A stretch of DNA of 64,000 bases, taken from IMG/VR virus record IMGVR_UViG_3300035053_000291, one strand, 5' to 3'. This DNA comes from a virus. Every line of letters begins with the position of its first letter. The stretch's first letter is position 1. Shown here piece by piece: positions 14,649 to 50,224 of the stretch. Position numbers and translations under genes: made by a program. The notes under the pieces were generated by a model. That model saw nothing but the letters and a program-made list of their open reading frames with translations, was not told the origin of the DNA and did not search any database.

Positions 14649-15976
14649 TAGAATGCCACCCTTCCATTCTTTTTGAGTTGGTCGAGTCGTTTGTCCACCT
14701 GGTTCATGTTCGGTTTGTATCTGCGTTGTCGTGGTTTAGATGCTTGTCGTGGTTTGCGGCGTCCTTCCTTCTTGTTTAAGGTAAGGCATTTGGTTGGTTT
14801 GCAGTATATGTTCCCGTTTCTCACATCCAAGACCTCTAATTTCCAGATGCCTTGCACATGACGGAATTTTCGTTGGAACTTGCTGGGAACAATAACATGC
14901 AGATTGGTGTCATTGGTCTTGATGTTATACCAGTCTTTGCCGGTTCCCTGTTCTTTCACAGGTGTCCCAGTGATGTGTTTTGGATGGTCCTTGATGAACT
15001 TCACTGGTTTGGCGACTACTTTCTCGTTGTCTTCCTTGAGTAATTTCATCTGCCAGACGCCGTCTTTCTTGAGGTCGTTCAAGAATGTTTTTGGAATCCA
15101 GACTTTCTTCTCCGTCCGGTCTGTATGAACCACTCGTTGACCGCCGATCTCTGCCTCAAAGTATGATTCTTCTGGGAGGTATCGGACTGGTGCGCATTTC
15201 ACCTTGTCAGTTGTCTCATCCAAAACTTTCATCTCCCAGACGCCTTCTTCGGTCATCGTATCCTTTCCCTTTACGACCCAGATGTCTTTCTGGGTGGCAT
15301 CAGTATAAATGCCTCGTCCATAGACGGCTTTGAATGTATCTTCTTTGATGGTTCTTCTGCGTTCTTTTTCAGCGAGGAATGCTTCCATGTCTGGTTCTCC
15401 GATGATGCGGTCATCGGTCACTTTGTAGACGTGGAATTTGGCATCGATGTCGTTCCAGTTCAAATCGGTGGTGTGTTTCATTGCATCTTTGACGATCCAG
15501 ACCTTCTTCCCATTGAATGTGGTGTTCATCCCTTGGAAATTGACTGGTATCACCGGATTCCATTCCTTGTCGATCCCTGCATCGGTGTAGTCAAGGTCCA
15601 GCTTGGAAAGTTTTTGATCTAACTGTTCTTTCGGGGACAATGGTTTGTTCTGCACGTTTCTGATGAATGATTGTAATTGATTGGTCATCTGGGTTTCTGG
15701 TTCTATGCGTGGTTCCGTTGTTGCTTTGATGTCGTGTTCGCTGACTTCCTTCCACCGGCGGACGATGTCAAACATCTCCCGTGCCCGTTGGGTCCGGGTG
15801 GCCAGTTGTCCTAAGCGATACAATGCGTTCTCCATGCCGTGAACTTCGACATATTTAGCTGCTTTCTTCTCCTGGAACGTGTTGACTTCGATGTTCATTG
15901 AACCAACCTCCAAGAGATTTTCATTTCCAATTCCTTCTTCATGTTTCCACTCTGCCAATTTTTCTGCTTTATTCAT
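14648..15976 (-). CDS. Protein with about four internal beta-rich repeats and a basic C-tail
   Basis: Repeats KKVWI..K...GVWxMKvLde.d.kv.a.P. Confidence 0.75.
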   Translation of the reverse strand: MNKAEKLAEWKHEEGIGNENLLEVGSMNIEVNTFQEKKAAKYVEVHGMENALYRLGQLATRTQRAREMFDIVRRWKEVSEHDIKATTEPRIEPETQMTNQLQSFIRNVQNKPLSPKEQLDQKLSKLDLDYTDAGIDKEWNPVIPVNFQGMNTTFNGKKVWIVKDAMKHTTDLNWNDIDAKFHVYKVTDDRIIGEPDMEAFLAEKERRRTIKEDTFKAVYGRGIYTDATQKDIWVVKGKDTMTEEGVWEMKVLDETTDKVKCAPVRYLPEESYFEAEIGGQRVVHTDRTEKKVWIPKTFLNDLKKDGVWQMKLLKEDNEKVVAKPVKFIKDHPKHITGTPVKEQGTGKDWYNIKTNDTNLHVIVPSKFQRKFRHVQGIWKLEVLDVRNGNIYCKPTKCLTLNKKEGRRKPRQASKPRQRRYKPNMNQVDKRLDQLKKNGRVAF

Positions 15977-16273
15977 TTAGAACAAGCCTCCTTTGATCAT
16001 TTCTGCCATGCTTACGGTCTTGTCTTCATAGCTAATTCCTGCCTTCTTGAAGGTGGCAAGAACGTCTATCTTTCCGTCTTCATCTCGGACTGGTTTGAAT
16101 CCTGCCACGCAGGCACCAACTGAACTGAATCGTTGGATGTCGTCATAATGCAGGGTGTCCTGCATCCTGCTGGCATATTCTTTGCCGAGGGCTTGTTCCA
16201 ATGCTTCTATTCCAGACTTACGTCCTTTTCTGCTGGCGTCTGGAGTGCCAGCTCTGTTCGTTGCATTTCGCAT
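15977..16273 (-). CDS. Hypothetical protein
   Basis: ORF track, GGAG SD. Confidence 0.65.
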   Translation of the reverse strand: MRNATNRAGTPDASRKGRKSGIEALEQALGKEYASRMQDTLHYDDIQRFSSVGACVAGFKPVRDEDGKIDVLATFKKAGISYEDKTVSMAEMIKGGLF

Positions 16274-16293
16274 ATGCTTTTTCTCCGTTTCTT

Positions 16294-16320
16294 TTCAGCC
16301 TTCGCTTGTTAGAAGGCTGA
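16294..16320 (-). terminator. Hairpin immediately 3' of mini-tRNA element
   Basis: TCAGCCTTC-N8-GAAGGCTGA, 9-bp inverted repeat. Confidence 0.55.
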
Positions 16321-16321
16321 T

Positions 16322-16370
16322 TCCTATGCCGGGGGTCGAACCCGGATCATGCTGCCAACTGGCCATAGGC
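16322..16370 (-). ncRNA. Anticodon-less tRNA-like element 1
   Basis: G-CCTATG...CATAGG-A acceptor-like stem, D-loop-like CAGTTGGC, T-arm CCGGG-TTCGACC-CCCGG; no anticodon arm. Confidence 0.65.
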
Positions 16371-16663
16371 TACGCTCAACAAACTGCGTTCCTCACCGCC
16401 CGTGTTGAGGGGCAAATTTATGGAAAAAGAGGTCTGGTTTTCATAATGAAATGAAAACCTGGAAGCCTCAGTTTTCTACTCTGCCATTCGTTACTCATAC
16501 CGAATAGGATAGATGTATATAATTGTTTTTATAGGCATTGAAAGTATAAAACAAAAGGGTTAAATATAGGAGACAGCATTAATATTCTTGTAAAGGCGAG
16601 GAAGTGTGTTCGTTGCATTTCCTCTGCTTTTTCTCCGTTTTTGAGTAGGGGGAAAAAATATTA

Positions 16664-16903
16664 ATGAATAATGCTATTGCGTCAACTGTCGGCGAGAAAA
16701 TGGCAGGGGACAACACGGAAAAGAAATGGGTTTCCATCTCATTGCATCGGGATCTTATCCATCAGATCGATTCATTTATCGATGATGATCGGTTCTACGG
16801 GTATACCAGCCGTACTGATTTCATCACCGAAGCGGTCAGACTGCGGTTAGAAGAATTGAAAAAACTGTATGATGATACCTTCCCCGAACGAAAAGAAGAC
16901 TAA
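16664..16903 (+). CDS. Ribbon-helix-helix (CopG-like) regulator
   Basis: WVSISLHRDLIHQID...YTSRTDFITEAVRLRL; divergent promoter. Confidence 0.85.
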   Translation: MNNAIASTVGEKMAGDNTEKKWVSISLHRDLIHQIDSFIDDDRFYGYTSRTDFITEAVRLRLEELKKLYDDTFPERKED

Positions 16904-17355
16904 GCAAGCATCTTCTCCAACACGTCTTTTATGTCTAATTTGGGGAATTGCAACAAATGGAAGACCAAGATGGTCACCGATTCATTGTTGAGTCGTTCCA
17001 TCTCCAGTAATGCGTTCTCCAGTTCATCCAGACTTTTTATCGATGTGCTTTGCTTTTTGAAGAACCGGTAATTCATGAGTGCTCCTTTCCGATAGGTGTC
17101 CAGTTCTTCTTCTGGGATGAGGGTCACTGGCTTCATCACGGTTTCTATATATTGGTAGAATGCTTCAATGGTCTGCCCTTCTTCCTTTGCTTTTCTTATA
17201 TGATTTATTAAGAATGCTGCAAAGTATACTGCCCCAGTGAGCCGTTCAATAGGGCATTCATCCTTGAGTGCAGACTTATAGATCCTTTTGGTGTTACTGA
17301 GGAAGTATTCCCTCAACTGTTCTTTCTTCATCATGTTCTGTCCCCTATTAAACAA
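16900..17355 (-). CDS. Hypothetical helical protein
   Basis: ORF track. Confidence 0.7.
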   Translation of the reverse strand: MFNRGQNMMKKEQLREYFLSNTKRIYKSALKDECPIERLTGAVYFAAFLINHIRKAKEEGQTIEAFYQYIETVMKPVTLIPEEELDTYRKGALMNYRFFKKQSTSIKSLDELENALLEMERLNNESVTILVFHLLQFPKLDIKDVLEKMLA

Positions 17356-17496
17356 TTATTTATATTTTGTTCTATATAAATATGTTTTGGCGAATATTTT
17401 TCACAGGCCTTTAAGTCTTGCAATGCCTTATAATTAAAAAGAAAGGAAGAGAAGGGAATTTTTTTGTTTTTTGCCCCCCTCTCCTCCTTGCCTCCC

Positions 17497-17649
17497 TTAT
17501 CTCGTGCGTTTGAGGTCTGTTCTGCCCTGTAGAACCAGTTCTCTTGCCTGATCCTCACCGACAAATACCTTATGCAGATGATCCGTCCAAAAATACCAGA
17601 TCGGTCGTTTGGCGGACCCTGCCTTTCTCACCGTTCCCTTAGTTGTCAT
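17497..17649 (-). CDS. Small hypothetical protein (MTTKGTVRK...)
   Basis: 3' part of the track ORF; start reassigned because the upstream Zn-finger gene overlaps. Confidence 0.55.
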   Translation of the reverse strand: MTTKGTVRKAGSAKRPIWYFWTDHLHKVFVGEDQARELVLQGRTDLKRTR

Positions 17650-17776
17650 GGGTACACGCTCCCATGGCATAAAAACAGCGCAGGCAGACCCAACGCATGG
17701 TTCCTTTGTCGTCCAGTTTCGTTCGCAACTGCTTGTGTGCCTCCCCACACGTACTACAGTGCTTTCTTTCGCTCAT
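17639..17776 (-). CDS. Small Zn-finger protein (45 aa, CSTC...CLRC)
   Basis: Manual translation, AGGAG SD. Confidence 0.65.
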   Translation of the reverse strand: MSERKHCSTCGEAHKQLRTKLDDKGTMRWVCLRCFYAMGACTHDN

Positions 17777-17998
17777 ATTGTTGTTTTCTCCTTTGTTCTT
17801 TTGTGGTCCTTTCCGGAACTGAACCGGTCTGGACCATGATGAAAAAAATGATGTTTTTATGAAAATTTAAATAGAAGAAAAAAGATTGAGGAGGTGTTGT
17901 TTTCTCCTTTGTTGGTCCTTTCCGGACCATCACTGGAGATTCGAATACTGAAAAGGGAAAGAAAGGACGTTTTAGTCCTTCTTTCCTACACCACCTAT

Positions 17999-18301
17999 CT
18001 ATTGGTAGATGTCCCGGATGTATGCCGGGTTTCCCCAACTTGTTTTTAGTTCCTTGAACTCCTCTTCTTTTGGTTGTTCTTCTGGTTCCTCTAGATCGAT
18101 GGTCTCCTGTATGTGGTCGAAATGCCCTTCTGCTGTAGTCTCTTCCCGGTCTTCCAACCGGATCGTTTCAGCTAGGTCTTTGTTTTCCTGCTCGAACTTG
18201 TCGAATTCCTGTTCCAACTCATCACAGAACGCATCAAATTCCCGTTCTAACTCATCGATTCGTTTGCCTTCTTCAACTTTTACTGTAAAATCTATATCCA
18301 T
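17999..18301 (-). CDS. Hypothetical acidic protein, C-terminus IYQ
   Basis: ORF track, GGAGG SD. Confidence 0.7.
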   Translation of the reverse strand: MDIDFTVKVEEGKRIDELEREFDAFCDELEQEFDKFEQENKDLAETIRLEDREETTAEGHFDHIQETIDLEEPEEQPKEEEFKELKTSWGNPAYIRDIYQ

Positions 18302-18357
18302 TGTTTATTCCTCCAAAAAATAAGTGGAAAATGGGACAGGTGTCCCATCCTTCCCTC

Positions 18358-18651
18358 TTAGTATGCTCGGGCTCCTCCATTGGCAATGGCATCTTCGATG
18401 AGTTGCTGGCGTCGGTAGATCTTTTCAGTCACATTTGCTGCCTTTTTCTGTTCGACCTCTTGCTGCCACATCCTGACAACTGTCTCTGGGACGGTCTTTT
18501 CGATCATTTCCAAGGCTTCTTCTTTCCTCATCAGGTCGTCAAAAGACATTGTTTCTGTCTTTGCTGCTGCCTGATAGATCTCTTTTGCCTCTTCGTATTT
18601 GATATGTTCGTCGTTTCCTGCGTTTCCTTTATATATCTCTTTTCTATTCAT
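18358..18651 (-). CDS. Hypothetical protein
   Basis: ORF track, AGGAG SD. Confidence 0.7.
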   Translation of the reverse strand: MNRKEIYKGNAGNDEHIKYEEAKEIYQAAAKTETMSFDDLMRKEEALEMIEKTVPETVVRMWQQEVEQKKAANVTEKIYRRQQLIEDAIANGGARAY

Positions 18652-18815
18652 GTTATGTCGCTCCTATTGTGCCCGGTTTTTCGCACCTCAATTTATTTTG
18701 CATTTGCCGGGCATGGTGGGGGTTGCTTCTCAAACCCCTTTTTCGCCCCATTCTGGATCTGAACCAGGCTGGGACATAGTGAAAAAATAGAAGAAAAAGG
18801 GAGAATGGTGTTGGT

Positions 18816-19118
18816 TTACTGCACCCTTCTTTCGATTGTTCTTTGGATTTCCCATCTGATCTTCATGCACATCTCAAAGACGAGGGCTATTCCATCCAGA
18901 TACGTTCCATATCTTTCTTTTATTGATTGGAAACAGAAGAAAAGCGCCACCAGATTCAGGGAAAAAAGCGCTATGAATCCTTGAAAATGCTGCTGTTGCC
19001 ATTTGAATATGAATCCAAAGGCGATTCCTGTTATCTGAAATGCAAGAGAGATGGATAACCAGCCATATACTCGAAATTTTTCTGCATCCTTCTGTTCTTT
19101 GTTTCCTAAATATCTCAT
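18816..19118 (-). CDS. Small membrane protein (2 TM)
   Basis: Two hydrophobic segments, SD. Confidence 0.7.
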   Translation of the reverse strand: MRYLGNKEQKDAEKFRVYGWLSISLAFQITGIAFGFIFKWQQQHFQGFIALFSLNLVALFFCFQSIKERYGTYLDGIALVFEMCMKIRWEIQRTIERRVQ

Positions 19119-19130
19119 GTTTCTTCCTCT

Positions 19131-19253
19131 TTATTGATGATGTTTCTGCTCCAATACCCTGATATATGCCTCTTCGAGCATACTGCAAGGGACGATTTCT
19201 TCTGCTGCTGCCACTTCTGCCTCAATTTGTTCTATTTCCTTTTCTGTATACAT
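19131..19253 (-). CDS. Small acidic protein (40 aa, MYTEKEIEQIEAEV...)
   Basis: Manual translation, AGGAG SD. Confidence 0.6.
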   Translation of the reverse strand: MYTEKEIEQIEAEVAAAEEIVPCSMLEEAYIRVLEQKHHQ

Positions 19254-19369
19254 GTTGTTTTTCTCCTATATCAGCCAGACAACCGCTTCTCAGGCTGTCA
19301 GCTGTCTTGTTTTTTTCAAAAAATGTGGTCCTTTCCGGAATTGAACCGGTCTGGACCATGGTGAAAAGG

Positions 19370-20239
19370 TGTAACGAGGGGGAATGCTTGGGTGTCAAAC
19401 CTCACATCCCCCCTTATAATAGGGCGTCATCGGCCTATTTTCAAATGGTTCGCAACTATCCTGGATGCTGCCAGGCTCATTTTACCCATGAGGATTTTCA
19501 GGTACACTAAGAACCACATGAAAACAGTTTTAAAAACCGAGTCTCAAGGGAAATGATCACATATGTGAAGGGCTAAAAGTCCCCCTGCAAAGCAAGGATC
19601 AAACCCATTGGGCCTATCACATCTGCTATTCCCCCAGTGTGCTTTAGACACTGGTTCGATGAACCATCACATCAGCCGCTATCAAGCGAGCCTTTTACCT
19701 CTCTTGGGTGTGATGGAAGTAGGATACCATACACGTCATTGTGTATGCACTTCAAACCGTTGCACAGTGCATTTCTCAGCCACTTTATCATAGGAACTCC
19801 ATTATTCTCAACCAACCATCTGGATGATATGTAAATAATGGGCGTTGGGTTACCAAAAGTTGTGAGGCGAACCTCTCATACGAGAGGAATCTGTCAACAC
19901 TTGTCTCCTTTCGGAGAATCGATTTTAGTCTCCTGTTGTGTCCTTTGCTGTTCCCGTAACTGATATCATCAAGGCGCCTTACGCCCCTATTACCAGGTGT
20001 CATCAGTCCCTTTCAGACATCTTCCCAGGTTGCCTCTCCCATCGGGAAGGGAGAGAAGAATAAGGGGAGTCAACCACCCTATGAGATATTCTCTCAAGGG
20101 GCAGATGTCTTACCGTATGGGTGTTTCTCAGGACCTCCGGCTTCTTTTTACTTTCAACCAGTCTTAGGAAACGCACCCGAAACAAAGGATGTGTTTGCCT
20201 ACCTGTGGTATTTTTTACGCCCCGTCCACTTAGGGCGAG
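19370..20239 (-). ncRNA. Candidate large structured ncRNA (~870 nt)
   Basis: No credible ORF; at least 12 perfect stems, GNRA and UGAGAA loops on the minus strand; preceded by mini-tRNA element. Confidence 0.65.
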
Positions 20240-20283
20240 TCCCAAGCAGAGGAATCGAACCTCTGGGAAGGCCATTCTTGGGC
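20240..20283 (-). ncRNA. Anticodon-less tRNA-like element 2
   Basis: G-CCCAAG-AATGGCCTTCC-CAGAGG-TTCGATT-CCTCTG-CTTGGG-A; 6+6 bp coaxial stack. Confidence 0.7.
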
Positions 20284-20810
20284 AGTTGTTTTTTTTCTTT
20301 TTTTTTCACAGGTGTTTTATTGCGTTCTTTTCCTGTGAGTTTTTTCTTTGTGTGGGGATTTTTTTTGTTTATGAAAATGTTTTTTGATTTAATTTTTTCA
20401 TGTTTTTTGCTTTTTTTTTCTCCTTATGTATCTCCACCCTATCCGTCCCATTTTTCACGAAAAAAAAAAATATTTTGAAAAAGAAAAAAAATTGGAACAA
20501 AAAAATAAATTGGAAAAAAAATTCGCAACAAAAAAAGAAAAAAAAGAAAAAATAAAAAAAGCAACAAAAGGAAAACAGGTCATCTAGGCATCTTGAGGCA
20601 GGAGGAGGAGGGGAGGGGCGGAGTGTGGGTTGCGGGGCAAAAATTTATTTTTGGCAGGGGTTCAGGGTGCCATAATGGGTCTCAAAATGTCTCTCAAAAA
20701 AGGTCTCATTCTCGGTCCCGAAATCTCTCTCAAATCGGGAACCTGTTTCTCCCTTAGAATGGACAGCTGTCCCCTTAGAAGAAAAAAAATTTAAAAAAAA
20801 TTTTTTTAGA
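20284..20810. other. Poly(T)/poly(A) tract region with G-rich run and short TCTCAAA repeats; possible origin or control region
   Basis: T-tracts 20284-20420 mirror A-tracts 20460-20580; G-runs 20601-20637; GGACAGCTGTCC flanked by CCCTTAGAA direct repeats. Confidence 0.4.
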
Positions 20811-20931
20811 GGTTTTTCTCTTTAGGTAGGTATGCCAGGATATTTTCCCCTCCTGGCTGGGTTGGATGCATCCCTTCCAGGTTATTTCTTTATTTTATAG
20901 GGGAATATGGCAGAAAAAGGCTTGTTTTGAA

Positions 20932-21006
20932 TAGCGGGAGATGGACTCGAACCACCGATCTGGAGGATATGGGCCTTCCGGGATGACCAGGCTTCCCCAT
21001 CCCGCT
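20932..21006 (-). tRNA. tRNA-Met(CAT), archaeal initiator-type, altered anticodon arm
   Basis: 75-nt cloverleaf AGCGGGA/TCCCGCT, A1:U72, D-stem GGGA/TCCC, TTCGAGT T-loop; CCA not encoded. Confidence 0.9.
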
Positions 21007-21329
21007 AAAAGGAGTATGGTTGCAGGAAAAAAAGCATTCATTTAGGGGACAAAAGCCATACGAAAGATCCTGCAACCATGGTTTACCTATGGCAAGCAAT
21101 ATCACAAATTGAATCTAGAGGTAAAAAGGCTTGTTTCGGGAGGGAGAAAAAGGGAGAAAGAAATGCAAAAAAAGCCCTTCTTCTCCCCGGTGATATGTAT
21201 GAATGGCAGAGATGAGGGGCATTTGAACAAAAAATCTCTATGTATTGGCAGATACGAGGAATAAATAATGCACTCTGCCCCTCATTACAATTCTACAGGA
21301 GTATATTGGGAGGTAAAAAGGCTTGTGTT

Positions 21330-21611
21330 CTACAAAGAATCGATGACTTTGAGTGCTTCCATGATCTTATCTTCAGGGATATGGTAAAAGGTGTGTTTCT
21401 TATTGTCTTTTTTCTTCTCTATTATTCCTATCTTTTTTAAGTGTATATGATAAATGTGTGACATCTCTATCGGTGGAAGGTTGGTTTTCTTACCCAGATC
21501 GCTCTGTTCTATCTTCCGTGGTGCGATCTGAATCAGAACATTGATGATCTTTCTCGTCTGACGGGGCTTATTTTCTTCCATCTCATCACATAAAACGATA
21601 TCTGTTGACAA
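21330..21611 (-). CDS. ArsR-like wHTH regulator
   Basis: IEQSDLGKKTNLPPIEMSHIYHIHLKKIGIIE...HTFY; probable leaderless start ATG 21581. Confidence 0.7.
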   Translation of the reverse strand: MSTDIVLCDEMEENKPRQTRKIINVLIQIAPRKIEQSDLGKKTNLPPIEMSHIYHIHLKKIGIIEKKKDNKKHTFYHIPEDKIMEALKVIDSL

Positions 21612-21656
21612 AAAGGCTTGTTCTCAAAAGAAAAAAAGAAAGGGTGTTGATTCCCT

Positions 21657-22559
21657 TTAGTTTGGCATTAACCAAGTTTGCATCGTATAGTCGCCTTCTG
21701 TTATCAACATATCAAATTCGTACTTGACTATCGTAGTATAGAAACTGTTTTCAGGTAAAATGAATTCAGTTCCTGGTGCAGGTTGAATACAAACATCAAA
21801 GAGACTTGATGAATCACCAGTTGATTTTCCTGGGATATATGCTTGTTGACCGTAACTTGTTTCGATATCGCCCATTACTTTGATTTTTTCTCCGAGTTTT
21901 TCGGCTGGAACAGTGATTGTATGTTGACCATCAAAACCAATACCATCATGGGTTATGGTGTAATCTGGTTCACTTCCAGTTTTGTATTCAAATTCATGAA
22001 TCCATCCAGAGCTGGTATAATACCATAAATCTGGAATTTCTGATGACATTACGTCCATTTGCCAATTATACCATCCATTACCATCGGTATCAATTGCGAG
22101 TAGATATGCTTGGGATGGGAATTCGAATCTGTACTCATCATTTTCACAATCATATACAATGTCGAATTTTCTGGTGTCATCCCCACCATAATAATCTTCT
22201 GTATCTTCACCTGCATCATACCATTCGATGTCATGCAAATCCATATTGGTTAAATGATATGACGTAGTTACACCATTTGGAATACTTTCCGATAAATACA
22301 CTGGTGCTTCCTGTGAAGCTCTGTTTTTAATGTAGAATGTTTTGCATACTGTGTCTCCACCAGTTACATCACCAATAGACATATCAACTACATCATCGTA
22401 TGGTTTCCATTCGCCACCAGCCTTTTTAATAACGACTGATTGTTTCACGTTTGCGGTTGTTTCAACTTTTCCATAGTATGTTAGCAATCCTGCTGATACA
22501 ACAACAGCTGATATTGCGAGAACTGCTAATATACCTAGTACTTTTCTTCCGATTTTCAT
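21657..22559 (-). CDS. Secreted/surface protein with TasA/camelysin-like (SipW-type) N-terminus
   Basis: Basic plus hydrophobic signal followed by AGLLTYYG..TANVKQSV. Confidence 0.65.
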   Translation of the reverse strand: MKIGRKVLGILAVLAISAVVVSAGLLTYYGKVETTANVKQSVVIKKAGGEWKPYDDVVDMSIGDVTGGDTVCKTFYIKNRASQEAPVYLSESIPNGVTTSYHLTNMDLHDIEWYDAGEDTEDYYGGDDTRKFDIVYDCENDEYRFEFPSQAYLLAIDTDGNGWYNWQMDVMSSEIPDLWYYTSSGWIHEFEYKTGSEPDYTITHDGIGFDGQHTITVPAEKLGEKIKVMGDIETSYGQQAYIPGKSTGDSSSLFDVCIQPAPGTEFILPENSFYTTIVKYEFDMLITEGDYTMQTWLMPN

Positions 22560-22575
22560 AGTTTTTGTTCTCCTT

Positions 22576-22598
22576 GACCCCTCTTTCTTTTTGGGGTC
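22576..22598 (-). terminator. Hairpin 3' of mini-tRNA element 3
   Basis: GACCCC-N-GGGGTC inverted repeat. Confidence 0.5.
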
Positions 22599-22600
22599 TA

Positions 22601-22656
22601 TACATCAGGACAGGACTCGAACCTGTTCTCTTTTATTGAGGGCCATTGCTGATGTC
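22601..22656 (-). ncRNA. tRNA-like element 3 (vestigial 3-bp central hairpin)
   Basis: G-ACATCAG-CAATGGCC-CTCAATAAAAGAG-A-ACAGG-TTCGAGT-CCTGT-C-CTGATGT-A. Confidence 0.65.
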
Positions 22657-23279
22657 TATTCTTCTTTCTTCTCTCTTCTTTTGAATATGACAATAATTAT
22701 GAATAAAAGTGAAAAGATGCTTATCCAGGCCAGTGTTCCAATGATATTATTCTCTTTTTTTGATGTTCCTGAAGAGAATGTGATTGTTCCTTGTTGTATT
22801 CGTGCCTCAGATGGTGGTTCTTCATCTGTGGGTTCTTCATCTGTGGGTTCTTCATCTGTGGTTTCTTCAGTGTCTTCTGTATCTTCGGGTGCTGATGGTG
22901 CTCTTGTTCTTGATCTATATGCTGGCCCATCGTCTTGTATTGGTGATTCTTCTTCTTTTATGATATATTTATAATCTATTTGTATGGTGTATTCTTCTGG
23001 CATCAGTGCAGGAGAGGTCTGTATTGTGGCTTCTACGGTCTTTGTTCCTTTGAAGGTGAATGATTCTTCTGAAAAAGAGATGGTCATTCCTTCGCCTGAT
23101 GGTTGTATATTATATGACATCCATACTGTGGTTTTTTCATCTGATCTGAATGTTATCTCTATTAGTTCATCGCATCCTGCTATCAGGTCCGGGGTTTCTT
23201 CTATTTCTGCAGTGAGTGTTGCTTGCGCTGCTGATGAGGTGCATATGATGAATAATATTCCTATTGCTTCCTTTTTCAT
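22656..23279 (-). CDS. Surface protein: signal peptide, Ig-like domain, acidic DEEPT repeats, C-terminal TM anchor
   Basis: 15-nt tandem repeat x3 at ~22815-22860; TM followed by KRREKK. Confidence 0.8.
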   Translation of the reverse strand: MKKEAIGILFIICTSSAAQATLTAEIEETPDLIAGCDELIEITFRSDEKTTVWMSYNIQPSGEGMTISFSEESFTFKGTKTVEATIQTSPALMPEEYTIQIDYKYIIKEEESPIQDDGPAYRSRTRAPSAPEDTEDTEETTDEEPTDEEPTDEEPPSEARIQQGTITFSSGTSKKENNIIGTLAWISIFSLLFIIIVIFKRREKKEE

Positions 23280-34284: not shown

Positions 34285-34571
34285 CTCTTGAAATGTTTGT
34301 CAACCATGTTGTCAACCTCATCGAATATCTCTTCTCTCAACTTGAACCGTTGATTGCGCAGTATTTCCAATTCCCTTTGAAAATCCATCACTGCAGTTCT
34401 CATCTGCTCTTCTTTTGCTTCTATGATGTAATGCAATATATCCGCAAAACGGGGGTTGATGTGAAACTCATGCAGTGCTTCCTCCACCATCTTCTTTTTT
34501 CTGATGATGTTCTTCTGTTCTTCTATTTCCTTCTTTTCTTTTTCTGCCTCTTCGATTGCGTTCACGGCCAT
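34275..34571 (-). CDS. Hypothetical coiled-coil protein
   Basis: ORF track. Confidence 0.7.
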   Translation of the reverse strand: MAVNAIEEAEKEKKEIEEQKNIIRKKKMVEEALHEFHINPRFADILHYIIEAKEEQMRTAVMDFQRELEILRNQRFKLREEIFDEVDNMVDKHFKRCY

Positions 34572-47511: not shown

Positions 47512-48597
47512 CTATTGATACATAATTCTATCATATTCATCAATCTTCTTTGTTTTTCCTTCTTTCTTCTTGACAGTTGTCGGAATCTCTTCCAACATGG
47601 TCTTGACCTTTGATATATTATCTTCTATGATGTTGATATGTTTCAACAACCCTTTCTGTTTCTTTTCCAATTGTGCTACTCGATCTTCTATGTTTTCGTC
47701 AACTGTCGGCTGTTTTCTGAATTCGTTGATTTCTTTTCTGACCTGTTTGAATTCATTTTCCACATAACCCATCAAATCCCATGATTCCAATGCATCCACT
47801 GCATCATAGAGATCATTATCCAGTAGTGTCTGTTCAAAGTCTGCATTTCCTGAAGACATGTCCAGCATCTTTCCATCGATGTTTAATGAGAATCCTGCCG
47901 CCACTCGCTTTGCTTTTGGCGATAATGCTTTTTTTGTGACGTGTGGTTTCTGGATGCAGTGTAGGTCTTTCCATGATATCCTGATGTGTGCTTTTTTCTG
48001 GAACCATTTGAGCGCTTCGTAGACAATAGAGAATATGGCTACTCTTGCCGAGTCTAATGATTCTTTTGCAAATGGCATTTCTGGAATTATAATAATCAGA
48101 TTATCTTTACCGTGTTTTTCGAACGTCCATGCATCGAATTCATCGAAGATTTTGACCTTGTATTTGCGGACTGCACAATTTCCTCTATCATATTTGTTAC
48201 ATTTCTCGAAGAAACTACTGTACTCTCTCTCAATCTTGGTTTGATACCTCGCCTTCTGTAGAACGATTTCACGTCTAGGTCGTGGTTTGGTTGACAACTT
48301 TTTTTGGTCGTCTTCATCGTCTTTTTTCAGTTTGTAGACATCGTCAAACTCAATATATGTTGCTTCGTAGAATTTGATTCTTTCTTCAGGATTGATACAT
48401 TTGATTAAGTTATTTTTTTGGAATTCTTTAATTGTTTTTGAAACATATTGTCTACTAATACCGACGTATTTGGCAACTTTTGACTGTGTTAGCTGGTATC
48501 CTTTTCCATCCTTATGTTGCCCGGTTAACAGTTCATAGATCTCTTTTTTCTTATTGTTAGCCGATTTCACACCATCCCTCGTTTCTGCTCTGCCCAT
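47512..48597 (-). CDS. N-terminal wHTH protein, possible replication or regulatory protein; C-terminus MYQ
   Basis: LTQSKVAKYVGISRQYVSKTIKEFQKNNLI; probable GTG start near 48571. Confidence 0.7.
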   Translation of the reverse strand: MGRAETRDGVKSANNKKKEIYELLTGQHKDGKGYQLTQSKVAKYVGISRQYVSKTIKEFQKNNLIKCINPEERIKFYEATYIEFDDVYKLKKDDEDDQKKLSTKPRPRREIVLQKARYQTKIEREYSSFFEKCNKYDRGNCAVRKYKVKIFDEFDAWTFEKHGKDNLIIIIPEMPFAKESLDSARVAIFSIVYEALKWFQKKAHIRISWKDLHCIQKPHVTKKALSPKAKRVAAGFSLNIDGKMLDMSSGNADFEQTLLDNDLYDAVDALESWDLMGYVENEFKQVRKEINEFRKQPTVDENIEDRVAQLEKKQKGLLKHINIIEDNISKVKTMLEEIPTTVKKKEGKTKKIDEYDRIMYQ

Positions 48598-50224
48598 TTG
48601 TTTTTAATCCACTAAACCACCCTATTGTCAACCAAGTTGTCAACCAAGCTGACAAGGCGGTTTTCATTGCGTCTTTCCTCACCATTTTGCTAGTCCCATC
48701 CAGCAGAAACTTTGGTGAGATTCTAAAATAATATAATTGCTTTGATAAAAATATATTCGTTGTTGGTTTACCACCTCCAAAAAAAAGAAAGAAAAAGGGG
48801 ATCACAATGCATTCAAAACTGGGCCGAAATCGAAAAGTTTCGAACAGAATCTCTCCCGTTGGCCATTCCTGGGCCTCGGCGGGCCCATACTCGCTTCTCG
48901 AAGGGATTCCATTCGAAACAGGGGTTTTTGGCCCTTGTTTCGATTTTAGCGTACTTTCCTCTCTCCATTTTTTTGGAAATTTGAGGGCACGCTTGACCCA
49001 GTCAAAATGATGTCGATAATAATATTCTTCAGCATGTTGAAGATACCGTTCTTCAGTTGTTTTGATGGTATCGTGTCCTAAGAATGTGCTTACCCATCGT
49101 ATCGGATCTGGGTGTTTTTCTTCCCATTTATGTGTGATCCACATGATTGCTGCTGTATGCCGCATACAATATGGGTGATATCTCTCATCAACCAATTTCC
49201 CTTTCAGCCTGAGATTTTTTCCAAATGTTTTCAGAGTCCATGGTTTTCCAGTATATGGTGAAATAAACAGTCTGTCCCCTTTGTAATTTGGCGACACGAA
49301 CTTCGGTCTGATTCGGTAGTAGAAATTAGAGAAACTTTTTCTTGTCTTTGCATGCAACAATGAGTCAATAAGATACAACGGTCTTGTGGAATAGTGCTTT
49401 TTCTTTTCCACAACTCGGATATATGGTCTTTTCAGATCGTAAAGGTGGTTTGTCCGCATCATCCAGAGTTCGCTTGGCGGTCTAACACCCAACATAAATC
49501 CAAAGAAGAAAATGTATTGCCAGTACCTGTTTATTTCACGATCGTCATCGTATCCATCAAAGTGAAAAAACTTCGTGAATGTTTTAGGTTCCAACACCAA
49601 TACTTCTTTTCTTTCTGGTTTTGGCGGTAGACGATACTTATTCCATGGGTGATCTGGTAGGCCATATGCTTGTCTAAATGCTTCAGTTACATCTTTCCGA
49701 TGTTTGAGTCCGTAAAAGTTTTTTCCTGTTTCAGCGTCATAATAGTTTTGCTTATACCATTTCATGTGGTACCTGAATTGAGCGTAGTTTAGATTGAAAA
49801 AATCTATTGGAAAGGGATTCTCCTTTTCTGATGTTGCCATCAATCTTGCATATCGGCGGTAATGATTTATTGTTTCTTCTGACCGGTATAATTCTTCATC
49901 TGCATATTGTAAAACTGCATTGAGTAGTTCTTCAAATGTCTCATACGCTGAAGGATCTATAGCAAAAGGGTCTGCATTGTGATTGTTAATTATCTTGCTT
50001 ACATTTTTATGTTCCACCTGCCCCCCAACCTTTGTGGTTGATCTTCGGTCGACAAGTGGGCGTCCAAAATTGTTTTCTTTGCATTCTTCTTTTGTACCTC
50101 CCCCGTCTGCTTCTCGAGACGGTGGGAGTATATTGTTCTCTTTCTCTTTATTATTTTCCCTATTATCTAAATTAAATGAAAACGAAATGTTTTGGTTTGA
50201 TTCGTGTTCTTTTTCCCATCTCAT
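48557..50224 (-). CDS. int: Tyrosine recombinase/integrase
   Basis: GVRPPSEL (Arg), HPYCMRHT, FLGHDTIKTTEERY; low-complexity C-terminal extension after YGPAE. Confidence 0.9.
   Translation of the reverse strand: MRWEKEHESNQNISFSFNLDNRENNKEKENNILPPSREADGGGTKEECKENNFGRPLVDRRSTTKVGGQVEHKNVSKIINNHNADPFAIDPSAYETFEELLNAVLQYADEELYRSEETINHYRRYARLMATSEKENPFPIDFFNLNYAQFRYHMKWYKQNYYDAETGKNFYGLKHRKDVTEAFRQAYGLPDHPWNKYRLPPKPERKEVLVLEPKTFTKFFHFDGYDDDREINRYWQYIFFFGFMLGVRPPSELWMMRTNHLYDLKRPYIRVVEKKKHYSTRPLYLIDSLLHAKTRKSFSNFYYRIRPKFVSPNYKGDRLFISPYTGKPWTLKTFGKNLRLKGKLVDERYHPYCMRHTAAIMWITHKWEEKHPDPIRWVSTFLGHDTIKTTEERYLQHAEEYYYRHHFDWVKRALKFPKKWREESTLKSKQGPKTPVSNGIPSRSEYGPAEAQEWPTGEILFETFRFRPSFECIVIPFFFLFFGGGKPTTNIFLSKQLYYFRISPKFLLDGTSKMVRKDAMKTALSAWLTTWLTIGWFSGLKTNGQSRNEGWCEIG

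Follow-up and report, generated by a model that had tools for sequence, protein, structure and literature searches.

Three tRNA-like elements with coupled hairpins are putative RNA-processing signals in a candidate archaeal mobile element

We analyzed a 64,000-nucleotide stretch of viral DNA (IMG/VR record IMGVR_UViG_3300035053_000291; hereafter the window, meaning this whole 64-kb stretch) and found on its minus strand three short elements that resemble the top half of a tRNA, each followed by a stable hairpin. From its gene content, we read the window as an uncultured archaeal mobile element or virus. On balance, we lean towards the view that the three elements (elements 1 to 3; Table 1) are t-element-type signals, that is, tRNA mimics that are probably read by the host RNase P and tRNase Z. 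In structure they fall within the definition of a t-element, an acceptor-like stem on a T arm with GGTTCRANYCC, and their function is predicted from this likeness.

The three elements share one plan: a G, an outer stem of 6-7 bp, a linker of 10-22 nt with TGGC, a T-arm-like stem-loop, the 3' strand of the outer stem, and an unpaired A. The inner stem of 5-6 bp is G:C-closed around a 7-nt loop, TTCGAnn, and the resulting GGTTCGAnnCC fits the tRNA T-arm consensus at T54, T55, C56, R57, and A58 (also at G53 and C61). The 3' strand of the outer stem joins the T arm directly or via one bulged base, and the acceptor/T-stem stack measures 11-12 bp in all five copies that we observed (the three elements and two homologs described below), compared with 7+5 bp in a tRNA. 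All 34 base pairs across the three elements are Watson-Crick. Element 1 has a G.A-capped 6-bp acceptor-like stem and a 3-bp D-like hairpin (GCC/GGC); in element 2, CCCAAG/CTTGGG stacks on the T arm to give 12 continuous bp; and in element 3, the linker includes AATGGCCC and one bulged C lies between the T stem and the acceptor-like stem. Minimum free energy (MFE) folds returned the same acceptor/T-arm architecture, with a separate stable hairpin starting 2-3 nt past the helix. A first-pass annotation of this DNA had described the three sites in these terms, and our reading of the sequence and the folds bore it out on every structural point: the strand, the intergenic placement and the trailing hairpins, the lack of a true anticodon arm, the GG-containing linker (TGGC in three of three), and a shared plan built from completely different stems (three unrelated stem sequences).

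None of the elements was called by ARAGORN, one of the tRNA search programs that the first-pass annotation had named; the sole canonical tRNA in the window is a tRNA-Met. The Rfam tRNA model (RF00005) matched the window at 20932-21006 only. No other Rfam family reached its threshold in the window, and at the three sites there was no match to any family, mascRNA-menRNA included, when E-values as high as 5 were allowed. Lacking an anticodon arm and negative in both the ARAGORN and the Rfam tRNA searches, the three elements cannot act as decoding tRNAs. The tRNA-Met itself is of the archaeal initiator type (A1:U72, AGCGGG start) and is without an encoded CCA.

A descriptor scan of the 64 kb returned precisely the three elements, with no match on the plus strand. 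When G-U pairs and linkers of 0-40 nt were allowed, 0.93 matches were expected per window, and three is not a significant excess under this loose definition. We therefore relied on a Watson-Crick-only definition, picked post hoc when the elements had already been seen, together with the independent evidence of conservation. Under this definition, 0.011 matches were expected per window as against the three found, and 0 of 1000 shuffles contained three. The presence of TGGC in all three linkers has a probability of ∼7e-5 (empirical and likewise post hoc), and that of a G and an A flanking all three helices ∼6e-4. GGTTCRANNCC occurs six times in the window, always on the minus strand, where 0.85 occurrences were expected.

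The genes that flank the elements have almost no relatives among 5.8 billion proteins, and the relatives available for comparison represent one divergent lineage from two Logan runs, SRR31818009 and SRR29699989 (contigs L001, L002, and L004). L001 and L002 carry the same pair of genes, for a 98-aa protein and a 437-aa protein (53% identity to the 442-aa protein of the window), with a divergent ribbon-helix-helix (RHH) gene upstream, and a homolog of element 1 lies at an equal distance from the start codon. Its 5' strand GCCTATG, 3' strand CATAGGA, and T loop TTCGAC are all identical to those of the window; its T stem shows one compensatory change (C:G to U:A) and one lost pair (A.A), and its middle has a different sequence, 20-odd nt longer than that of the window. 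On L004, which encodes a 48% identical homolog of the 207-aa protein that precedes element 3, an element 3 homolog lies directly past the TAA stop codon. There the 17-nt T arm is identical, the acceptor strands agree at 6/7 positions each, the bulge is kept (C to A), and CGGTCCC is still present in a diverged linker. Since the acceptor/T-arm stack, the GG-containing linker, and the adjacent hairpin are kept in L001/L002/L004 while the interior changes, we conclude from these alignments that selection maintains the former, and that the interior may vary or be deleted. Conservation of the stems in homologous loci, which the first-pass annotation had named as a check on its proposal, was found for elements 1 and 3 (in L001/L002 and L004, respectively).

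A covariance-model search, of the type that the same annotation suggested for related contigs, gave a divided result in the window: a model built from the element 3 pair recovered element 2 (E 0.006) and missed element 1. The structures of the three paralogs did not come into register in MAFFT alignments, which precluded a joint model. The next match of the element 3 model, at 34383-34429, was rejected as coding sequence without a T loop. Other searches for relatives were negative: the pattern of the element 3 3' half and the 300-aa and 442-aa proteins had no match in viral_contigs, the alignment built on the 442-aa protein had none in metagenome_contigs and genome_contigs, and blastn of 15900-23000 had none among phage records. 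Distant homologs of the N-terminal part of the 300-aa protein (L005-L010) are without such an element, and Logan contigs from four oil-field runs contained the identical strain only and offered neither informative variants nor RNA.

The L002 copy of element 1 retains more of a tRNA than the copy in the window. It forms a D arm (GACC-GGATGGC-GGTC), and where a tRNA would have its anticodon arm there is an aberrant one of 6 bp, closed by a 6-nt loop. It has no variable region and was not called a tRNA by ARAGORN. This four-armed relative suggests that element 1 descends from a tRNA gene, and that the relative copy may be a tRNA gene en route to a pure processing signal. An intermediate between a tRNA and the form in the window could also be taken, as could the position of all three elements within 6.4 kb of a tRNA gene, for a sign that the elements are decaying tRNA pseudogenes, functionless relics of a former cluster around the tRNA-Met. 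We consider this very unlikely: three independent losses of the anticodon arm would have to coincide with flawless Watson-Crick acceptor and T stems, the 17-nt T arm of element 3 is unchanged in a relative in which the end of the gene just before it aligns poorly, and a compensatory change, conserved G and A flanks, a conserved TGGC, and a covarying adjacent hairpin all speak against decay.

The hairpin that follows each element is stable, and for hairpins 1 and 3 the spacing of 2-3 nt is kept in the relatives. Hairpin 1 leads into a Shine-Dalgarno (SD) sequence, GGAG, and the start codon (ATG) of the 98-aa gene, at 16273; in L002 it carries three compensatory double changes in 8 pairs, and its loop, UAAGAAGC, is kept relative to UAACAAGC in the window. 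Hairpin 3, with one compensatory change (C:G to U:A) in L004, leads into the SD sequence AGGAG and the start codon (ATG) of the 300-aa gene, at 22559. Hairpin 2 sits at the 5' edge of a structured stretch free of open reading frames (ORFs). The elements thus lie on the sense strand in intergenic gaps, adjoining either an SD sequence and ATG (elements 1 and 3) or a structured RNA (element 2), and they are predicted to be co-transcribed with what follows.

Element 3 occupies a 96-nt gap between the 207-aa and 300-aa cistrons, starting straight after the TAG stop codon. Element 1 is found in the 390 bp that separate the divergent RHH and 98-aa genes, ∼130 nt downstream of a TTATATAC box that is conserved in both lineages, and belongs to a conserved, structured leader of about 130 nt that includes a further hairpin upstream. 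Element 2 follows a low-complexity block, T-rich and then A-rich, and precedes ∼0.9 kb without a credible gene. The first-pass annotation had described the elements as punctuating the transcript; in the strict sense this holds only for element 3, between its two cistrons, since element 1 lies in a promoter-proximal 5' leader and element 2 stands before a candidate non-coding RNA.

RNase P measures the acceptor/T-stem stack and touches the elbow between the T and D loops, and the acceptor stem and T arm are the binding site of tRNase Z, whose cut falls past the unpaired discriminator. Because the parts retained in the relatives are those that these tRNA end-processing enzymes recognize, we propose that the elements are cleaved. 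An earlier suggestion of the first-pass annotation, that the elements are processing signals, thereby gained ground for elements 1 and 3, where the parts read by the two enzymes are conserved. We reasoned that the elements would be transcribed inside minus-strand RNAs of the mobile element, that host RNase P would cut at the 5' border and tRNase Z after the 3' A, and that a mini-tRNA of 45-55 nt would be released. The downstream RNA would be left with a 5'-monophosphate end, and a stable hairpin starting 1-2 nt further on may, judging by 5'-terminal stem-loops in general, shield this end from 5'-to-3' exonucleases. The D-loop-like YGGY linker could close a tRNA-like elbow. In this way, element 1 would trim the ∼130-nt leader off the 98-aa/442-aa operon, and a cut at element 3 would part the 207-aa cistron from the 300-aa cistron exactly where the former has its stop codon. 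Element 2 would set the 5' end of the ∼0.9-kb structured RNA; the first-pass annotation had expected a cut at this end, and the expectation is drawn from position alone.

Methanomicrobial RNase Z enzymes cut pre-tRNAs that are missing the anticodon, D, or T arm, as long as the acceptor stem is present and the 5' end is mature (PMC7479834). In Haloferax, both RNase P and tRNase Z cleave t-elements that flank an RNA in vivo, with exact ends and a 5' phosphate on the downstream product (PMC4326828, PMC4946936), and plant-mitochondrial t-elements, found with the T-arm motif screen that we also used (GGTTCRANYCC), coincide with mapped mRNA 5' and 3' ends (Forner et al., 2007, PMC1920247). A wider proposal is that mimic and hairpin, 2-3 nt apart, form a modular RNA-punctuation cassette that hijacks RNase P and tRNase Z to give exact, exonuclease-resistant 5' ends to selected mRNAs and to the ∼0.9-kb RNA, as one case of a broad undescribed class in viruses and mobile elements of archaea and bacteria. 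We regard this generalization as tentative, and somewhat doubtful as a whole.

Several observations weigh against cleavage. Most predicted Haloferax tRNA-like elements were reportedly left uncleaved in vitro in a genome-wide screen by Holzle et al. from 2012. The 6-bp acceptor stems with their G.A cap, and the element 3 bulge, depart from the canonical 7+5 bp ruler. Cleavage of element 3 would end the upstream mRNA at its stop codon, and element 1, lying inside a larger conserved leader, could have a regulatory instead of a processing role. The relatives belong to a single lineage, and the tRNA-like part accordingly shows little covariation (one pair with a compensatory change, another lost to A.A); a search of metagenome_contigs with the element 2 3'-half pattern found no homolog. 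Oil-field metagenomes contain the window DNA at low depth, in at least 19 runs; the 19 are all DNA, with 0 RNA runs among them. Finally, a 22-nt pattern from the tRNA-Met 3' end matched three bacterial metagenome-assembled genomes only (among species genomes), which is uninformative on the host and hence on the type of its RNase P.

If mini-tRNAs are released, they might themselves be the functional product: small RNAs, stable and perhaps tailed with CCA, with a role in trans such as that of a sponge or decoy for host tRNA-binding enzymes or tRNA-directed defence nucleases. There are precedents of the mascRNA type, and an unusual initiator tRNA is carried by the mobile element as well. In the three elements, a linker is retained that can form the elbow and that methanomicrobial tRNase Zs did not need in vitro with Co2+ (PMC7479834). 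We nevertheless hold a role in trans to be distinctly unlikely. Most known tRNA-directed nucleases attack the anticodon loop, and the elements have none; they are placed just upstream of a hairpin-led RNA, an arrangement that is kept in the relative and points to a role in cis; and no dedicated promoter or terminator surrounds any of them. The complete difference of the three stems moreover implies that no common sequence-specific target is mimicked. The idea in the first-pass annotation of a decoy for tRNA-targeting defences or CCA enzymes therefore went unsupported, given elements with no anticodon loop, no encoded CCA, and a strictly cis placement before hairpin, SD sequence, and ATG.

Archaeal elements commonly integrate in tRNA genes, and the window encodes a tyrosine-recombinase-like protein (48557-50224), so we also weighed whether the three elements are attachment (att)-like recombination sites or footprints of an integrase at tRNA genes. 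This we find scarcely credible. An att site is one contiguous part of a tRNA gene, whereas the elements have both acceptor strands and lack the interior; the element 3 bulge is absent from any tRNA 3' half; and the integrase-like gene is 26 kb off, with no second copy of any element sequence in the window. Searches with the 3' halves of element 2 (in the metagenome collection) and element 3 (in the viral collection) were likewise without a match.

Table 1. Features of the window discussed in the text, with coordinates counted from its first nucleotide
Feature	Coordinates	Strand	Description
Element 1	16322..16370	minus	G-CCTATG, 18-nt linker GCCAGTTGGCAGCATGAT, CCGGG-TTCGACC-CCCGG-CATAGG-A
Element 2	20240..20283	minus	G-CCCAAG, linker AATGGCCTTC, CAGAGG-TTCGATT-CCTCTG-CTTGGG-A
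Element 3	22601..22656	minus	(TAG stop)G-ACATCAG, 22-nt linker CAATGGCCC..., ACAGG-TTCGAGT-CCTGT-C-CTGATGT-A
Hairpin 1	16295..16320	minus	9-bp stem, loop UAACAAGC; 2 nt past element 1
Hairpin 2	20218..20237	minus	6-bp G+C-rich stem, 8-nt loop; 3 nt past element 2
Hairpin 3	22576..22598	minus	GACCCC/GGGGTC; 3 nt past element 3
Upstream hairpin of element 1	16375..16409	minus	CUCAAC/GUUGAG; A:U to U:A compensatory change in L002 (CUCUAC/GUAGAG)
Structured stretch (candidate large non-coding RNA)	19359..20217	minus	No credible gene; between element 2 and class-2 hairpin
Class-2 hairpin	19326..19358	minus	6-bp outer stem, 3x3 internal loop, CCGG-TTCAATT-CCGG; followed by T6
Class-2 hairpin copies	17804-17836, 18744-18776	minus	GGUUCARNUCC loop on 4-bp stem
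U-R-A-S-A-A-G-C-loop hairpins	16295-16320, 18719-18738, 19278-19299 (L002 549-572)	minus	8-nt loop, covarying stems
tRNA-Met(CAT)	20931-21007	minus	ARAGORN call; sole canonical tRNA in the window
RHH gene	16664-16903	plus	79-aa ribbon-helix-helix protein, divergent from the element 1 operon; conserved in L002

The stretch downstream of element 2 is a candidate large non-coding RNA. The MFE of 19320-20285 has a z-score of -3.5 against shuffles; no Rfam family matched the stretch, and its 90-aa and 71-aa ORFs are without a Pfam match. It ends in a T-arm-like hairpin followed by T6, one of three copies of a hairpin class (class 2) whose outer stem covaries between the copies. An alternative pairing of 19330-19369 as a further mini-tRNA (CCUUU/AAAGG, ending in ACCA) was rejected, because the covarying extended hairpin better accounts for all class-2 copies. 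Two of the class-2 hairpins have a conserved, TATA-like TTTTTCTTCTATTT box upstream, by which they may be 5'-terminal stem-loops of primary transcripts.

A second recurrent structure is a hairpin with a U-R-A-S-A-A-G-C loop, found on the coding strand and each time shortly before an SD sequence and start codon. Hairpin 1, behind element 1, is one of these; two more are found downstream of class-2 hairpins, in one case past a T6 run. Further hairpins with the loop UGAGAAGC precede small SD-led genes in the same 6-kb region. With its class-2 and loop hairpins, the region in which the elements lie is unusually rich in conserved leader structures.

This setting raises the question of whether the elements are cut at all, or are cis-acting structural or regulatory leader modules, akin to the class-2 family, in which elbow and hairpins bind a protein or the ribosome or stabilize the RNA. 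Element 1 does stand, within a structured leader, between two further hairpins that are conserved and covary, and the loop hairpin that follows it recurs downstream of two class-2 hairpins, which are not tRNA-shaped. The class-2 hairpins themselves have GGUUCARNUCC loops, although two of the three lack A58. We judge leader modules of this kind to be an unlikely explanation. What the elements copy is precisely the set of features that tRNA end-processing enzymes read: an 11-12 bp stack, a T loop that agrees with the whole consensus (A58 included), a linker with YGGY, and a 3' purine left unpaired. A generic protein-binding hairpin would not need the whole set, and no candidate binding protein was identified. 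We retain the proposal of cleavage by RNase P and tRNase Z as the reading that we favor.

Around element 1, we observed a direct repeat of ∼35 nt: the SD sequence and first codons of the 98-aa gene (16255-16297) recur at 16603-16640, adjoining the start of the RHH gene. The same repeat is present in the relative (L002 186-230 and 571-612), and within each lineage the letters specific to it are common to both copies. From this arrangement, the repeats may be two operators for the RHH protein or the footprint of a cassette insertion. The motif GGCAGAGYAG occurs in 24 copies in the whole window, 23 of them on the minus strand, where 3.8 were expected; one copy forms the 5' strand of a long hairpin in the element 1 leader.

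Upstream of element 2, at 20290-21625, the GC skew is locally reversed, and three GGTCTCAAAATGTCTCTCAAA-like repeats accompany the T-rich then A-rich block. The sequence AACAAGCCTTTTT has four copies, found only within these limits (minus strand), after the 300-aa gene, a winged helix-turn-helix gene, and the tRNA-Met. By these features, 20290-21625 may be either origin-like or a site of clustered promoters and terminators.

Nearly all long ORFs of the window are on the minus strand; the RHH gene is an exception to this rule. Besides the recombinase-like protein, the window encodes a PCNA-type sliding clamp (2163-2996), an AAA ATPase, and a type III restriction-modification pair; most of the remaining proteins were assigned to no family in family searches. 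The region of 16.3-21.7 kb contains small SD-led genes, RNA structures, and the one plus-strand RHH gene. Reassignment of a stop codon (TAG=Q, table 4) was rejected as an explanation of this region, as it opens no long frames there.

Full-text searches of the literature returned no account of tRNA-like punctuation in any archaeal virus or plasmid, and the sole natural archaeal t-element that they turned up lies upstream of the 5S rRNA of Haloferax. How archaea form the 5' ends of their RNAs and process their mRNAs is poorly understood. If our reading is true, mobile elements co-opt the universal tRNA-processing machinery to organize their own expression, and the origin of the 5' end of a large structured RNA would be explained. 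The elements would also be compact natural parts, of 45-55 nt, for releasing RNAs with exact ends in archaea, comparable to the Haloferax t-element that has been engineered to release CRISPR RNAs (PMC4326828, PMC4946936).

Four known systems invite comparison. In MALAT1 mascRNA and MEN-beta, a tRNA-like fold in a long transcript is cut by RNase P and RNase Z, gives rise to a small tRNA-like RNA, and sets the end of the long RNA. These cases are eukaryotic and concern the 3' end of the upstream RNA, which is protected in a triple helix, whereas in the window we propose a hairpin-capped 5' end on the downstream RNA. In mitochondrial tRNA punctuation, polycistronic RNA is cut by RNase P and RNase Z at tRNA-shaped spacers, which are thereby excised (reviewed in PMC3790967). 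The mitochondrial spacers are functional tRNAs, whereas the elements of the window cannot decode, and a cut at element 3 would fall at a stop codon.

The t-elements of plant mitochondria (PMC1920247) are likewise non-decoding folds with a perfect GGTTCRANYCC T arm and an acceptor-like stem, found in 5' leaders or behind coding regions. Their borders fall at mRNA ends that RNase P and RNase Z produce. They are organellar and mostly cloverleaf-like, and their RNA ends have been mapped; those of the window, read here from sequence alone, belong to an apparently archaeal mobile element and consist of the top half with a short linker, and it is in the window that a hairpin is coupled 2-3 nt downstream. 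The t-element before the 5S rRNA of Haloferax volcanii (PMC4326828, PMC4946936) is an archaeal signal for RNase P and tRNase Z that sets the 5' end of a downstream non-coding RNA, as we propose for element 2. It is a single natural case in a chromosomal rRNA operon, whereas the window has three elements of unrelated sequence, two of them before protein genes. Overall, our analyses support the idea of t-elements that would differ from those described in four respects: their place in a putative archaeal mobile element, their reduction to a top half with a short linker, their three unrelated stems, and their conserved coupling to a downstream hairpin.

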